Shown here piece by piece: positions 10,568 through 29,343 of a stretch of 30,057 bases of DNA (positions within the stretch are counted from its first letter, which is position 1; every line of letters begins with the position of its first letter). A model generated the notes under the pieces. That model worked only from the letters and a program-made list of their open reading frames with translations. It was not told the DNA's origin and ran no database searches. Source of the stretch: a virus (Duplodnaviria; Caudoviricetes); IMG/VR virus record IMGVR_UViG_3300020045_005812, positions 1 to 30,057 of that record. One strand, 5' to 3'. Position numbers and translations under genes: made by a program.

Positions 10568-12300
10568 AATTTCCAAGTTTTTATCAATTCAGTGATTGCA
10601 ACAGATTTTTGTATAGTATTGTCTGGATTAACCAATATATCATTTATAGAATCAGCAGCGTCTTGCAAAGCTTGTGCATAATACTCACGGCATTCGATAT
10701 ATTGTTTTTCTTCCAATACTGATACATGAGCTAAATCTAGCTCGTTTAAGAGCTTATTATCTGGATGAGGTAAACTATACCCAGAATGTTCTTTTACGCT
10801 TGCAAAAACATTGTCAGTATCTTCAGTGTCTAGTTTAGTTATAGAATTATAAACTTGTTCCTGTATTGAATAATTACCTGATGGATCTGGTGTTTTTATT
10901 TCTGAAACTGTAGCGAACGGATTATTTACCGGAACATTTACAGTTATCGCTCCTTCTCCTGCTGGCTCGCTAGGCATTAGTTTTAATAACATTGCTTTTA
11001 ATTCTGCTATCTGCTTTTCTTGTTCTGCAATTTTAGAATCCTGTTCAATCTTCACTGATTCCAAAGCGATAATAATAGCTTTTCCTTGAGTAACCAAGGC
11101 GGTAAAATCTGCATCTGTTTTCTCTTCAATATCTTTTTGAGTGATAACCAAAGAGCCAGCTCTGTAATCGTCAAATTCGCTGTTGTAAGTGAATGGAACT
11201 GCAAATAATTCTTTTACCCTGTTTTGCGCTTGAAGCAATAAACGATTATCCCAATCTTCTATTAGCTTTTTTTGCTTATCATAAGGCTCTCTAGTGAGTT
11301 TTGCAATTGGAACCAGTGCGGTTTTCAACATAGTCTTAAAAGTATTTAAATACTTCGTAGCTGTTGCCTCTACTCCTTTCGACCCATCAATTGCAGTACT
11401 GGCAGATAATAATATAGCAGCCACTTTTTTGGCCTCTGCATACGTTTTTTTATCTTTGATGATTACAACAGGATTTGCTTTTACAATTTCTTCTTGAGCA
11501 ATACGAAGTCCTTGTAACTCGGTAATTTTCTCAGGTGTTAGTTTTTCAAAAATTTGCAATGAAACACTATCGCTTGGTACTTGTACTTGTACTTGTACTT
11601 GTACTGTATCTACAATTATAGCCTGCTGAGGCTGATCTGTATTTACTACCTCTTCATATTTAGGCTTTATGTAATCATCGATGCTGATACCGTCACGAGT
11701 AAAATAAGCTAAATCATCTTTCAACACGTCAACACTACCTTTCTTTCCTTTTGAAATATTATAGTCGTTTAGTTTAGCTATATCTACGTAATTGAATAAC
11801 GGGAACTTATCTTGTAAATACAAAAAGTCCGCATGTCCTAAACCGTAATTTACATTGTTCTCTTCTATAACTCCAAGATCTGACAATGTAAGTTTGTTGG
11901 TCTCTATATGATTTTGAAAACTTGGTAGGTGTGAGGAATCTAAACCCAAATCGACTACTTCTATTTCGTGCCACTTCCCACCATGCGCTACGAGTATAAT
12001 AGATTGGTTTTTAATACCAGATTTTAGAAGGTTAGCTACTTCTACTTGTTCCGTGCCAAATTGCACTAAGATTGATTCTGAAGCCTCAAAGGCTTTTGGT
12101 TTTGATAATTTGTTCATTTGTGATAAGTGTTTATTGATTAATTCCCATTTTGCAAGCCCAGTTTCTAAATCTATCATGTCTTCGAAAACTAAATCAGTTA
12201 CAGCGTGTCCGCATTTAAAATATGCAGTTCCTTTTTCTGAAATATAATTCAGTTCAAAAATACGATCATTATTAGGTTCTGGGTATTTGTATTTTTTCAT
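10564..12300 (-). CDS. Large hypothetical coiled-coil protein (578 aa; possible internal start at 12117)
   Basis: Long ORF with a central helical region loosely reminiscent of DUF1351/Gam-like coiled coils, and a VQ repeat linker. Confidence 0.75.
   Translation of the reverse strand: MKKYKYPEPNNDRIFELNYISEKGTAYFKCGHAVTDLVFEDMIDLETGLAKWELINKHLSQMNKLSKPKAFEASESILVQFGTEQVEVANLLKSGIKNQSIILVAHGGKWHEIEVVDLGLDSSHLPSFQNHIETNKLTLSDLGVIEENNVNYGLGHADFLYLQDKFPLFNYVDIAKLNDYNISKGKKGSVDVLKDDLAYFTRDGISIDDYIKPKYEEVVNTDQPQQAIIVDTVQVQVQVQVPSDSVSLQIFEKLTPEKITELQGLRIAQEEIVKANPVVIIKDKKTYAEAKKVAAILLSASTAIDGSKGVEATATKYLNTFKTMLKTALVPIAKLTREPYDKQKKLIEDWDNRLLLQAQNRVKELFAVPFTYNSEFDDYRAGSLVITQKDIEEKTDADFTALVTQGKAIIIALESVKIEQDSKIAEQEKQIAELKAMLLKLMPSEPAGEGAITVNVPVNNPFATVSEIKTPDPSGNYSIQEQVYNSITKLDTEDTDNVFASVKEHSGYSLPHPDNKLLNELDLAHVSVLEEKQYIECREYYAQALQDAADSINDILVNPDNTIQKSVAITELIKTWKL
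11577..11605. repeat. Hexanucleotide tandem repeat (GTACTT)x4.8 encoding VQVQVQVQV
   Basis: Directly visible; in-frame unit. Confidence 0.9.
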
Positions 12301-12301
12301 A

Positions 12302-12334
12302 CGCAAATATAATACTTATTTTTACGTATGCAAA
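12302..12334 (-). promoter_or_regulatory. Consensus Bacteroidota promoter; contains 27-bp repeat copy 1
   Basis: TTTG - 19 nt - TATATTTG; 12302-12328 is identical to 20266-20292. Confidence 0.85.
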
Positions 12335-12638
12335 TTTATTTTACAGTTATTTACAATTATTTTTACAATTTATTTTACACTTCTTACCCTGTTAAGTACT
12401 GTATATATTATATATTATACATAATTATACATAAATAATAATATAAATAAATAAATAAATAAATAATATATTAAGAGGGGTCTCTAGTGTAAAATATATA
12501 TAAAGGGGTGTGTCAAAGTGTATAAGTGTAAAAAAAATCACGTAACTAATTGAAATTATTATAGTTACGTGATTTTTTAGTGTATAATACAAATGTATAA
12601 TATTTATTTAATGTGTTGATTATGAATTATTTATAAAA
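12335..12638. other. Probable replication origin
   Basis: ~300-bp non-coding, extremely AT-rich gap after the DUF3987 gene. Contains TTTACA repeats facing GTGTA repeats, an (AAAT)n tract and a 17-bp perfect inverted repeat (12532-12548/12562-12578). Confidence 0.55.
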
Positions 12639-14494: not shown

Positions 14495-14661
14495 AATTTC
14501 CAGTTTTCAATTACGTAAATTTCAGCCGTTTTCCAGCTTTTACTATCTCTCAATCTTTTGTACAGGGTATTCTTTGAAATACCAATCTTCTTACAGACTT
14601 CTTCGTCTGTCATACAGAAGCGCATTTGCTCTACTTTTCTTGTGCAATCGTGGTTTGTCAT
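14491..14661 (-). CDS. Small HTH DNA-binding protein (56 aa); absent from ORF track
   Basis: MTNHDCTRKVEQMRFCMTDEEVCKKIGISKNTLYKRLRDSKSWKTAEIYVIENWKL; TDEEVCKKIGISKNTLYKRL is a classic HTH. Confidence 0.8.
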   Translation of the reverse strand: MTNHDCTRKVEQMRFCMTDEEVCKKIGISKNTLYKRLRDSKSWKTAEIYVIENWKL

Positions 14662-14669
14662 GATATAAT

Positions 14670-14835
14670 TTATAGGTTAAAAACGTGGTCTAATTTGATT
14701 TGGTCGTACCATTGTAATTCTGAAATGTCAATTGTTTTTGATTCCATTCTAATTATAGGTTTTAATTTAGTCACCAAAGTCGTTAATGTTATATTCATTT
14801 TTAGTGATATTATGGTAATAAATTATTTGTCCCAT
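14670..14835 (-). pseudogene. Possible frameshifted small gene (22-aa ORF 14767..14835 plus overlapping 42-aa ORF 14670..14798)
   Basis: Strong A-rich start at 14835 stops after 22 codons; the +1 frame continues to fill the gap to the next gene. Confidence 0.35.
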
Positions 14836-14876
14836 TTTGTTTGTTTTATAAGTTAATTTTCTTTAATAATCCGTCC

Positions 14877-14972
14877 AGCTACTAACATATGATACAAGCT
14901 ATTTGCAGACGATACTCTTTCACAACACGTTCAGTATTGGCAAACATCTTGTATCATCGTCCGTTAGTAGCT
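14877..14972 (-). mobile_element. attC-like palindromic element B
   Basis: AGCTACTAAC-6nt-TGATACAAG-AT-GTTTGC...GCAAAT-AG-CTTGTATCA-3nt-GTTAGTAGCT; begins 1 nt after the stop of ORF 14974..15291. Confidence 0.65.
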
Positions 14973-14973
14973 A

Positions 14974-15291
14974 CTAGACCGTAACTACTAAAAATTCAGA
15001 ATCGAAAAAATCTTCATCTACTATAATTTTTCTATCTCCGTATTTATCAGGAGCAGAAACGATACAGTTTTTTTCTAAACAATCAAGAACTTTATAAGCC
15101 CAATTGTATCCTTTTTTAAATTCAACTTGCAGTTTTGCGCCTCGTACAATTTCTTTCCCTTTTAATGATAGAATTACATTTATTAATTCCTCATCATTTA
15201 CAGGACCAATAGTAGTACCTAAACTAGCATCTACTAACACGTGATTGTGGCTATTGCCAGATTGATCTTTAATTTGATTATTGTTTTGCAT
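14974..15291 (-). CDS. Stand-alone FtsK gamma-like winged-helix protein (105 aa)
   Basis: GAKLQVEFKKGYNWAYKVLDCLEKNCIVSAPDKYGDRKII aligns by eye with the FtsK-gamma pattern LQR.LRIGYNRAAR..E.LE..GIVS.....G.REVL. Confidence 0.75.
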   Translation of the reverse strand: MQNNNQIKDQSGNSHNHVLVDASLGTTIGPVNDEELINVILSLKGKEIVRGAKLQVEFKKGYNWAYKVLDCLEKNCIVSAPDKYGDRKIIVDEDFFDSEFLVVTV

Positions 15292-15362
15292 CTTAAAAAT
15301 TTGTGTTTAATTTAATTAATTGGATTATTTATTGGCAACATCCACAATCACCCAACGTTAGT
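15233..15362 (-). mobile_element. attC-like palindromic element A (loop contains the start codon of the 105-aa ORF)
   Basis: ACTAAC-5nt-GTGATTGTGG-AT-GTTGCCA-[73-nt A-rich loop]-TGGCAAT-AG-CCACAATCAC-2nt-GTTAGT. Confidence 0.65.
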
Positions 15363-15386
15363 TCATTTTTTGCACCAAAATAGTGC

Positions 15387-15416
15387 AAAAGAAAAACCGC
15401 CACTTTCGCAACGGTT
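15387..15416 (-). terminator. Rho-independent terminator
   Basis: AACCGTTGC-GAAA-GTGGCGGTT (G-U pairs form only on the minus strand) followed by TTTCTTTT, after the VRR-NUC gene. Confidence 0.7.
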
Positions 15417-15427
15417 CAACAAATATA

Positions 15428-15862: not shown

Positions 15863-16717
15863 TTAGAAAGCCTCGCAGGACTCACTGCACGAGTTTAATT
15901 TTTGATATTTAGCAAGCTTTAATATTTCTTTATCTGATAATCTGGACATTTCCGCAATATCATGAGTTGATTTATTTCCTCTATAGAAATTAAAAGGAGG
16001 TTTTAAACCTGTATTTCTAGGGTTAAATAACCCATATTTATCTTGCATTGCAGTCCACCAGTTGAAACTTATTTTATTTCGCCTGTAGTTTCGTATGAGT
16101 CTAGGAAAATCTTTTTTCCAGCAATTATCACAATTGCCTTCGTCATCATGTACTTTTAAATCAAAATGCTGTACCTGCCACCAGTCTATTATCTGTGATT
16201 TAATCATTTCTAAGTAATCCCACCTATTTGAAGAAATTAAAGGGTATATTATACGATCTTTAATATATGTGTTTGAAATTCTGTCAATTTCATCGCTTCT
16301 AATTCCTATTGCAGTATAATATTTTTTAAATTTTATTTGTCTCAAATAAGCTTTTATTGTTCTGTTTTTTAAGATGGTGCTGCAAAACGGTGTGTTAGTT
16401 GAGGGTATTCCAACATGAGCAATCATTTCTTCAAAAGGCTCTCCGTTTCTGCTGGCTGTATAAAAATTTACTATTTTTGGATTTACTTTCCATCCTTTTT
16501 CAGATCCTGCTCTATATTCTACCCAAACAATAGGAATATTAAAATTTATTCCAAACTCGTAAACAAATTTTAAAGTTTCTTCTGATTCTTTTCCAGTATT
16601 AGCAAAAACAACTTTCATATTATATTTTTCTTGGTAATTAATATTGTTCCAAATCCAATATAACATAAATGCAGAAGTTCGCCCACCGCTAAACGATATT
16701 AATAAATTTTCTTTCAT
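15863..16717 (-). CDS. PAPS-reductase-like (PP-loop, Fe-S) protein (284 aa)
   Basis: ISFSGGRTS PP-loop, VFANTGKE, FCS..LK, IGIRSDE, YPL, GNCDNCWKK, C-terminal SCSESC. Confidence 0.85.
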   Translation of the reverse strand: MKENLLISFSGGRTSAFMLYWIWNNINYQEKYNMKVVFANTGKESEETLKFVYEFGINFNIPIVWVEYRAGSEKGWKVNPKIVNFYTASRNGEPFEEMIAHVGIPSTNTPFCSTILKNRTIKAYLRQIKFKKYYTAIGIRSDEIDRISNTYIKDRIIYPLISSNRWDYLEMIKSQIIDWWQVQHFDLKVHDDEGNCDNCWKKDFPRLIRNYRRNKISFNWWTAMQDKYGLFNPRNTGLKPPFNFYRGNKSTHDIAEMSRLSDKEILKLAKYQKLNSCSESCEAF

Positions 16718-19874: not shown

Positions 19875-20245
19875 GATTTTAATATTTCGAATTTACGTTC
19901 AGGTTTTATTTCTCTAACCACATCGAATTTTCTAAGATTCATTTTTACCGTGTAGCCGTATTTATTTTTGAACGTAACAAATTGATGCCATTCACACGAA
20001 TAAATAGTACAAACCAATGTGCAGAAATGATTTAAAACCTTATACGTATTTCCTGCCGTAGTAGATCTACCTGTCTCTTTAGCTAATATCATACTAGAAG
20101 GCAAGGTTTTTGGTTTATTTTCTAACATTAATTTTCTTTCAGCTGCTAAATCAGATTGTACTTTTAATTTTTCCTTAGTACCTAATGCCATATACCAGTT
20201 AGGCTTCAGATCTTGAATTGTTTTTTTATTGTAAGTTGTTTTCAT
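19871..20245 (-). CDS. Hypothetical protein (124 aa)
   Basis: First gene of the leftward operon; ACTTATC directly precedes the ATG. Confidence 0.8.
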   Translation of the reverse strand: MKTTYNKKTIQDLKPNWYMALGTKEKLKVQSDLAAERKLMLENKPKTLPSSMILAKETGRSTTAGNTYKVLNHFCTLVCTIYSCEWHQFVTFKNKYGYTVKMNLRKFDVVREIKPERKFEILKS

Positions 20246-20265
20246 GATAAGTGATTTTTATATGT

Positions 20266-20292
20266 CGCAAATATAATACTTATTTTTACGTA
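20266..20292 (-). promoter_or_regulatory. Leftward promoter (-7 TATATTTG); 27-bp repeat copy 2
   Basis: Identical to 12302-12328; lies in the divergent intergenic region. Confidence 0.8.
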
Positions 20293-20322
20293 AAAAAGTT
20301 TTTTTATTCAAAAGTTTTGTTT

Positions 20323-27967: not shown

Positions 27968-29343
27968 ACTGTTTTAGGTGTTTCTGGTTTTGCTTCTTCT
28001 GGATTCCCTAAAAGCTCTATAGCTTCTTCTGTAGTTTTTCCGTAAAACTGTTTAAAAATAGCTATCGCACTGGCTTTTGATGTAGTTCCGTCAAGGAATG
28101 ATTTCTGAATATCCAATACAAGTGTTGCGCCTCCTACAGTTCCGCTTAATTCTGCCTGTGATTTAGCTTTTATTGCCTCTGCGCTTTCGTCTACAATTAC
28201 CCCGCCTTCATCTTCTACTTGTTTTTCTCTGAATTCCTCAAAGTCTACAAATTCCAGTTTAACCGCTGGATCAATTAGTTTAAATAATTTTGTCAAACCA
28301 TCTAAAACAACTTTTCGAAGCGGGTTTATATTTCGTCTGTATAAATCTTTGGTAGCTACTATTCTTTCGTCTGCATTGCTAGAAAATCCACTAGAATCAC
28401 TTGATCCAGAATAAAGGATTTTAGGCACTGAATGACCGACTATAATTTTTCTTTCACACTCTTCAGCGAAAAATACATTTTGTTGATTTAAATTAGGCGT
28501 CTCTACCTGATCTATCGTTGTTGCGTCTAAAGCGTCGGAGTTATAAGATACGACTACATGATGCTTTGGAGAACCTCCTGTATAGTCTTTCTTTATCGCT
28601 TCAGCTTTTTTCTTTTTCACATCTTCAGAAGCGGCTCCTTGTTTTCCTCCGTTGAAATTTATTACTGTTGTAATTTTATTTTCAAACTGGAAATGTGTTT
28701 TTGTGTTTTGGCCTAGGAATCCTTCAGCGATACAGTAATTAATACAGCTGAAGTAATCAGGTAAAGGAAAGAATTTGTTTTTTGTAATTCTTTGCACAAT
28801 AACAATTTCTACACCTCCCTGATATGTGCCGTCGAATTTTTTACAAGACACTGGTGTGTAAGTCCCAGATTGTGCCCAATCCCATGAATACCAATAACCA
28901 ACGACTTTTGGATGTACTGTTCTGCAATCCAATTCAACAGCAAAATTTTCAATAGGAATATATTCAAATTTCAATAGCTTTCTGTCTTTTTCACTATCAT
29001 TCCAAATAGCCTGTAACGCATAGCCTCCCATCATTTTTGTGTCCAAACAAATAAGCTCTTGATCGTCTGGACTGATATATTTTGAAATATCTAAATCAGA
29101 ACCAACATTTACAATACCATCAGCATACATGAAGTTTACAAAAGAACTTATAATACTTTGGTTTGTCGGACTATCGTCGTAAGCGTCACGGAGTGTTTTG
29201 TAGTTCGAGTTATTAAATCCGTTAGTAACAGCATTTACCCCGTTTTGGGTCATTAATGGGTTTATGTCGATAGGTTGCCATGCTGACATTTTTACAACTT
29301 CCTCACTAAATGAGTAAACATTTTCTATATTACCTACTTCCAT
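27964..29343 (-). CDS. Portal protein (459 aa)
   Basis: Size; SPTNQSII, GGYALQ.IW, FPLPDY, KI..GHSVP.IL and INPLR motifs typical of portals. Confidence 0.8.
   Translation of the reverse strand: MEVGNIENVYSFSEEVVKMSAWQPIDINPLMTQNGVNAVTNGFNNSNYKTLRDAYDDSPTNQSIISSFVNFMYADGIVNVGSDLDISKYISPDDQELICLDTKMMGGYALQAIWNDSEKDRKLLKFEYIPIENFAVELDCRTVHPKVVGYWYSWDWAQSGTYTPVSCKKFDGTYQGGVEIVIVQRITKNKFFPLPDYFSCINYCIAEGFLGQNTKTHFQFENKITTVINFNGGKQGAASEDVKKKKAEAIKKDYTGGSPKHHVVVSYNSDALDATTIDQVETPNLNQQNVFFAEECERKIIVGHSVPKILYSGSSDSSGFSSNADERIVATKDLYRRNINPLRKVVLDGLTKLFKLIDPAVKLEFVDFEEFREKQVEDEGGVIVDESAEAIKAKSQAELSGTVGGATLVLDIQKSFLDGTTSKASAIAIFKQFYGKTTEEAIELLGNPEEAKPETPKTV

Follow-up and report, generated by a model that had tools for sequence, protein, structure and literature searches.

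The window analyzed here, a 30,057-nucleotide stretch of viral DNA, is an 88% complete phage contig with genes for terminase, portal, lysozyme, and helicase, and the host is of the Flavobacterium type. On its minus strand, two hairpins bracket a single gene. Hairpin A (15233..15362) belongs to a long class, extends over 126 nt from TAAC at 15360 to GTTA at 15235 with the long arm first, and has an A+T-rich loop that contains a translation start. Hairpin B (14877..14972) belongs to a short class (84 nt, TAAC at 14966 to GTTA at 14883) and to the next cassette. Between them lies a gene body, or core (14963..15238, minus strand; 276 bp), that runs from GTT to AAC, has a terminal inverted repeat matching at nine of ten positions, and contains no in-frame ATG, GTG, or TTG. 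The 105-aa ORF (14974..15291, minus strand) joins an 18-codon leader from hairpin A to a stand-alone FtsK gamma-like winged helix. The body of another cassette, a truncated one, starts at 14833..14887 (minus strand), and no matching end repeat was found for it before the next phage gene; its leader is common with bodies in the loci L241 (90%) and L015 (84%). This 55-nt leader (window 14833-14887; L241 9636-9692; L015 4461-4517) heads unrelated genes, which makes it a third kind of module boundary, located inside bodies. The window is an orphan array remnant with two hairpins, one whole cassette, one truncated cassette, and no recombinase.

Hairpins A and B are genuine and are the only two such sites of the contig. 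They are the two best TAAC..GTTA stems in the window (score 17; next best 12; best of 100 Markov simulations 16), and a stricter detector gave a single match in four and two matches in none of 200 simulated windows. A covariance model trained on 41 hairpins taken from other phages, with the window and four recombinase loci carrying close relatives of A left out, recovered both as matches to the family hairpin (A, E 2.5e-16; B, E 3.2e-6; these E-values are rough) and nothing else in the window below E 0.8. Their folding z-scores range from -2.4 to -6.4. The outer left flank of A has no T at -8 and is not a core end, so A is the distal edge of the remnant; this body-end T is likewise missing at the outer flank of seven of 13 distal-most hairpins, compared with none of 115 internal ones.

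Much of an earlier note on this DNA was reproduced, namely, the coordinates and stems of both hairpins, the left arm that is 3 nt longer, the 73-nt interior of A, the start of B 1 nt after the stop codon, the G-to-G distance of 352 bp (15238 to 14886), and the 54 nt, or 18 codons, from ATG to G. What it described as an AT/AG mismatch is actually a single A.G mismatch followed by a T-A pair and a G.T wobble. Its use of end complementarity (8 versus 6 nt) to place the crossover fails: over 10 nt, the counts are 8 for the ends of A, 9 for the right end of A with the left end of B, and 10 for the ends of B, and among 261 internal hairpins the flanks in place were not more complementary than shuffled flanks. 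The same comparison ruled out the perfect 10-nt ends of B as a sign of target preference.

The cassette gene resembles the gamma domain of FtsK in its winged-helix fold and its GYN..A..++..LE motif, but it stands alone, lacks the motor, and is 20-24% identical. The 105-aa ORF matched Pfam PF09397 with E 9.9e-6 and 25.6 bits (below the curated cut-off of 30.6) and PDB 2j5p in a profile search (E 0.0011), and the best fold match was E. coli FtsK gamma (E 7.5e-4). Residues 1-15 have pLDDT values below 50, and the hairpin-derived leader is predicted to be disordered. Among 401 Flavobacterium genomes, one (L291) has a homologue of this cargo, free-standing and with its own ATG. Given this homologue and the predicted disorder, the leader is likely a start device rather than a functional domain. 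A metagenome scan with the cargo alignment confirmed none of 82 candidates. Our guess is that the cargo might compete with the host FtsK for KOPS DNA or XerD. A methyltransferase-like family also occurs both free-standing with its own ATG (L001 7643-8329) and as a hairpin-led cassette body (L003 5001-5753). Such pairs of free-standing and cassette forms, in this family as in the cargo (L291), may be a record of cassette birth.

The cassette occupies a variable slot (14656..15370, minus strand) that has a VRR-NUC-like nuclease gene on one side and an HTH gene on the other. Two close relatives, L001 and L002, are colinear with the window at 74-95% and carry in this slot a DNA methylase-like gene pair and an HNH-like gene, respectively, with no hairpins; the gene names given here were read from translations rather than from library matches. 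Homology with the relatives breaks off at 15371 or 15385, 10 nt short of A, and picks up again near 14655, about 230 nt past B. The expected empty allele with breakpoints at G^TTA was not seen in L001 and L002, in which the entire slot is swapped and the breaks are not at the cores.

Just upstream of A, a TAnnTTTG box (15420-15427, minus strand), which we take to be the Bacteroidota -7 consensus, is followed by a stem-loop with a T run (15386-15416), and both are kept in L001 and L002 despite the other genes in the slot. With these elements, the slot may be a hotspot in which incoming genes are ready to be expressed; by itself, the box motif is common (61 in the window). Elsewhere in the window, a PAPS-reductase-like gene (15863-16717) lies in an operon in which L001 and L002 have other genes, and its family occurs as cassette cargo in L018. 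The two copies of a 65-nt direct repeat (12277-12341 and 20241-20305) lie in divergent gaps that look like promoters, and behind the DUF3987 gene an A+T-rich gap (12348-12631) contains nested inverted repeats and is perhaps an origin.

Hairpins A and B are members of a large array family that is found in phages of Bacteroidota as well as in chromosomes of Flavobacteriaceae. The cassette-shuffling system with non-canonical spacing proposed in the earlier note is supported by these arrays and by base-exact exchanges within them; further gene-flanking copies, for which that note had proposed a scan, are present in both groups, and a tyrosine recombinase, though not an IntI, adjoins related arrays. 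Relatives of A that are 82-85% identical precede at least four unrelated gene bodies. In L003, a phage unrelated to that of the window, the match is confined to TAAC at 15360 through GTTA at 15235 (83%); the A-like leader there sits on a DNA methyltransferase, after which come a half-site and a tyrosine recombinase of 267 aa (L003 5814-6617).

A recombinase query returned 47 viral loci, and 42 of these had a usable start (five partial matches were left out; two pairs are near-duplicates). Around the recombinase of these 42 loci, 152 hairpins in the same orientation were found in 231 kb upstream and none in 331 kb downstream. A half-site occurs about 55 nt before the recombinase ATG in 37 of the 42, and a half-site is present in all eight of the chromosomal regions. 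Relatives of the window thus have an attI-type half-site beside the recombinase gene; in the window, none was found beside A or B. In the chromosomal regions (L283-L290), the half-sites lie 39-125 nt after the recombinase stop codon. A flanking palindrome of about 20 nt, not the same from one genome to the next, often accompanies them and is possibly an accessory binding site or an operator. Another locus (L040 2396-4018) has a truncated recombinase and then three hairpins on the opposite strand.

Inverted end repeats of 8-10 nt were found in 137 of 148 array intervals in the 42 viral loci. At the body ends the sequence is T-N6-TAAC, of which the short arm carries a degenerate version 4 nt ahead of GTT. 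The hairpins have YAAC..GTTR cores and covarying stems in register, with spacers of 4 nt and 6-8 nt; outside the core, the alternation of purine and pyrimidine classes is not conserved, and equal spacers with extrahelical bases were not found. Structure is kept over sequence, as the earlier note had held for A and B: stems vary widely and pairing is kept at most positions. A pattern for one subfamily found 123 viral stretches (about 320 estimated). Among the 80 pattern loci with full flanks, 67 have at least two hairpins and seven have a recombinase within 2.5 kb, so orphan clusters like that of the window look common. A scan with the 16-nt half-site was rejected as mostly chance, with a hairpin or recombinase in just 21 of 65 new loci. 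The 141 ORFs of phage cargo include 10 DNA methyltransferases and two Mom-like proteins, a cargo that would suit counter-defence.

Recombinase homologues (about 40-46% identity) are present in 64 of 151 Flavobacteriaceae genomes, with a hairpin just downstream of the recombinase in 17 of 29 loci inspected. Eight longer chromosomal regions contain 103 hairpins, and 89 of their 96 genes have the classical gene-then-site direction; in phage arrays, 406 of 420 bodies come after their own hairpin in the sense direction. The strand that presents the long arm first carries the genes in phages, and in chromosomes it is the other strand, so the structure is tied to DNA rather than to mRNA. On this strand, G.T exceeds A.C by 909 to 349 in the phage set and 301 to 46 in the chromosomal set, counts that are partly built in, as the detector requires a G behind AAC, a T ahead of GTT, and an offset of 2-5 nt, and its scoring favours G.T over A.C.

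These strand relations bear on the reading that the hairpins act as RNA, in processing, stability, or translational control, and that the genes move by homologous or illegitimate recombination. Both A and B fold well as RNA, and the ribosome-loading region is enclosed by the long hairpins, as such a role would have it. The same asymmetric structure, however, lies on the non-transcribed strand in chromosomal arrays, the breaks are base-exact between unrelated sequences, and bodies have 10-nt end repeats that pair only in a circle. Rfam had no match at A or B up to E 1 and none in six array loci at the gathering score. We would give this reading hardly any weight.

In the preferred reading, the main cassette unit is hairpin A plus the gene body (14964..15357, minus strand; 394 bp), inserted and excised with TAA^C at both ends. 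The earlier note had instead proposed a 352-bp unit (14886..15237, minus strand) composed of the body and hairpin B and cut at G^TT. Both pair counts and contig neighbours argue that the travelling unit is the upstream hairpin with its gene. Among 1811 pairs of similar hairpins, the downstream flank alone was common in 72, the upstream flank alone in one, both in none, and neither in 1738; neither flank was common in 60 of 67 pairs with at least 95% identity. When bodies were shared (23 pairs), the upstream hairpin was kept in 10 and the downstream hairpin in none, against a background of about 1%; the hairpin and body pairs in these counts are not independent. Clustering of shared cores (threshold 0.78; 19 clusters) gave upstream hairpins kept in eight, changed in nine, and mixed in two, and downstream hairpins kept in none. 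What follows one particular unit is the half-site in L049 but a hairpin in L184. In a chromosomal array, 11 pairs of repeated units (eight identical) keep the hairpin on the long-arm side among new neighbours, although such repeated units could be assembly errors. In the array L287 (G111), four short units each occur two or three times in shuffled order.

Direct evidence also exists for the cassette boundaries of the window itself, modest remnant as it is. A contig of sequencing run X2 matches 14963-15287 with 11 differences in 325 nt, keeps the right part of A, and continues at the other end into 27 other letters; a contig of run X3 has no differences over 14961-15051 and then enters another hairpin. 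Contigs of runs X1, X4, and X6 span the junction of A and the body. Because contigs keep A and change neighbour at 14963 or 14961, the unit extends from 15357 to 14964. No contig that carries the body together with B was found among the matches from the runs searched, and no joints or circles were found in seven runs, all of them available as contigs, a type of data from which rare forms are lost.

A reading in which the gene and the downstream hairpin B form the unit has the start codon borrowed from the upstream neighbour each time the unit inserts. It gains from exact leader swaps at GTT, in which bodies 95-96% identical have unrelated upstream hairpins, from four cargo homologues that carry other leaders and switch at the junction leucine, and from one 110-nt contig that joins the body of the window to another right arm, which is a hint at most given its 21 loose letters. 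The pair and cluster counts above run against it, as no downstream hairpin was kept; so do the half-site beside the recombinase, which joins at TAA^C and has no right arm, and the contigs of X1, X2, X4, and X6, in which A stays with the body and B is absent. We consider it unlikely that the 352-bp segment is the main unit. As for the G^TT crossover itself, it does not hold as the usual break and does hold as a second route, with upstream hairpins changed in nine of the 19 shared-core clusters; since exact exchange at GTT occurs in this way, a 352-bp circle is possible as a minor excision product. A cut within the right arm, at its inner box 5 nt ahead of GTT, was considered and rejected, as swapped pairs differ there and identical hairpins agree when inspected by eye.

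The same exchanges bear on the origin of start codons. The claim that hairpin A supplies the start codon and N-terminus agrees with the start-less body and the in-frame ATG in A. The idea of translational fusion stands in so far as the start codon comes from A and leaders are swapped at GTT; this swap is the less frequent of the two kinds of exchange. Among 319 long hairpins, 164 start the downstream ORF in frame (64.6 +- 6.2 in permutations, maximum 83), and an in-frame ATG is present in the hairpin for 121 of 122 start-less bodies that lie behind long hairpins. The fusions of hairpin to body use two of the three frames.

The earlier note had seen no recombinase in the window, and indeed none was found in this contig or in two partial relatives. 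The recombinase of related arrays carries the catalytic motifs, and its closest solved structure is XerA. Its alignment with VchIntIA is in two pieces, with 35 residues in place of 83 across the insertion, and the distance from KGxKxR to HxxRH is 59-65 residues in 35 phage and 28 chromosomal copies, compared with about 107 in VchIntIA. The TIGR02249 model gives it 137 bits in two stretches (cut-off 265), and model positions of about 180-240 are skipped in chromosomal homologues. As far as its sequence tells, this recombinase has no IntI-specific additional domain (I2 helix) and is not an IntI. In the accessible part of one structural account, the I2 helix is described as enabling IntI to dock extrahelical bases (PMC7790495). 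The array family provides the best TIGR02249 match in all four array genomes, and may therefore be a sister of IntI; in G111, G145, and G124, the best match of the genome is the array-adjacent copy. In 12 records from isolated phages, the closest integrases are just 34-35% identical.

Could the hairpins be an ordinary integrase-less attC cluster served by a classical host IntI? The YAAC..GTTR cores, the folding, and the array layout would fit, as would the published phage attC clusters, in which IntI1 recombined five of six tested sites according to the accessible part of the report (PMC9892861). By the same account, the sole tested site that IntI1 did not recombine is P12002L_attC1, which has the geometry of the window family; moreover, the enzyme adjacent to related arrays has no IntI insertion, and no TIGR02249 match exceeded the cut-off in any of the five genomes searched, four of them picked for long arrays. 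A host IntI is very unlikely as the explanation. Another proposal is that the junction of hairpin and body is a plain double-strand site, Xer-like with a 6-bp overlap, at which folding plays no role. The resemblance of the enzyme to XerA and XerD, its lack of the helix by which IntI handles single strands, and the order of box, 4-nt spacer, and box in the short arm and half-site are all in line with this proposal. Double-strand exchange normally needs a conserved overlap between partners, however, and the overlap region is not conserved here, and pairing is kept at most positions in stems of widely varying sequence. We find this proposal close to negligible.

The reading that we prefer, and regard as quite probable, is that A and B are the orphan remnant of a family of asymmetric-hairpin cassettes, likely placed in trans by a non-IntI tyrosine recombinase acting on a folded strand. 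That a non-IntI recombinase runs this integron-like system is likely; the enzyme is linked to the hairpins by position only. Comparison of the arrays indicates that units are exchanged exactly at AA^C on the long-arm-first strand, that a conserved half-site next to the recombinase gene closes the arrays, that phage genes are flipped relative to the chromosomal layout with the hairpin upstream and start codons provided by long hairpins, and that upstream hairpins are also replaced exactly at GTT. Mechanistically, the recombinase, provided here in trans, would bind two inverted boxes of the T-N6-WAAC type on the folded strand, and one strand would be exchanged at AA^C of the folded long-arm-first strand, as the break positions and pairing suggest. 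The junction may then be resolved by replication, as in integrons. Circles of hairpin plus body could enter at a half-site or at a chance TAAC, as the missing body-end T in the outer flank of A would suggest for the window. An occasional cut at G^TT in the fold of the opposite strand might free the body with the downstream hairpin as a circle of the 352-bp type, and re-insertion of this circle at AA^C would give the body a new leader. Such re-entry would account for downstream linkage never being seen while upstream hairpins change.

Several observations sit less easily with this preferred reading. The lack of a common flank in 60 of 67 near-identical hairpin pairs is more than a rare side reaction suggests, and some other cassette-making process could be the alternative. 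The contig and its two partial relatives have no recombinase, only seven of the 80 pattern loci have one within 2.5 kb, and no exact empty site is present in L001 or L002. More tentatively, as a proposal that we find slightly harder to believe than to doubt, a second integron-like lineage with no I2 helix may span Bacteroidota and their phages, with hairpins cut at either end and phages building genes from start-less bodies and interchangeable hairpin-encoded starts. If this were true, either-end cutting would expose a working route to cassette creation, which is still unexplained for integrons, and single-strand hairpin recombination would occur without the helix thought to enable it. Leader swapping offers a direct way to test how cassettes are born.

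Among known systems, integrons (IntI, attI, and attC), especially sedentary chromosomal arrays, are the most similar in having tandem cassettes, imperfect hairpins with YAAC..GTTR cores, homogeneous repeats (122-127 nt), one half-site beside a tyrosine recombinase gene, and exact exchange at G^TT/AA^C with one preferred strand. The window family differs in that its enzyme has no IntI additional domain, its end repeats are 10 nt, and its hairpins have their extra 2-4 nt in the spacer that borders the cut end, not as single flipped-out stem bases. Spacers of attC sites are equal, at 5 nt. Their two extrahelical stem bases lie about 6 nt apart, as given in the accessible part of PMC3053210. The genes of the phage form are flipped and face the recombinase, with their starts inside the hairpin, and the order of a gene followed by its own site is found in chromosomal arrays but not in the window or phage arrays. 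A recombinase in cis is absent from the window contig but present in related arrays.

The phage CALINs of Qi et al. (2023; PMC9892861) are similar as integrase-less hairpin clusters in a Bacteroidota phage with methyltransferase cargo. Polaribacter phage P12002L (L116) contains at least five hairpins of the window family, attC1 among them; a further hairpin at 14503 faces the opposite way, and the published attC2 at 29242 resembles a half-site after a body end rather than a full hairpin of this family. In the accessible part of that paper, the clusters are treated as ordinary attC sites, no cognate enzyme is named, attC1 is inactive with IntI1, and there is no mention of flipped genes, hairpin-borne start codons, or two-ended exchange. 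The inverted-integrase integrons of Treponema (PMC4889954, as far as its accessible part goes) resemble the chromosomal form, in which recombinase gene and cassettes share one orientation, but they have a true IntI, whereas the phage form of the window family has its array upstream of the recombinase.

Surveys of integrons identify the enzyme through its IntI domain and list hardly any integrons from Bacteroidetes (accessible parts of PMC9024848 and PMC4889954), and the IntegronFinder papers, in their accessible parts, set aside recombinases with no such domain. In the open-access literature searched, we found no prior account of a system of hairpins and a non-IntI recombinase. Should the enzyme recombine folded strands, there are ways of doing so other than the I2 helix. 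The system works like an integron and departs from integrons in its enzyme and site geometry, and is thus a variant rather than a member.
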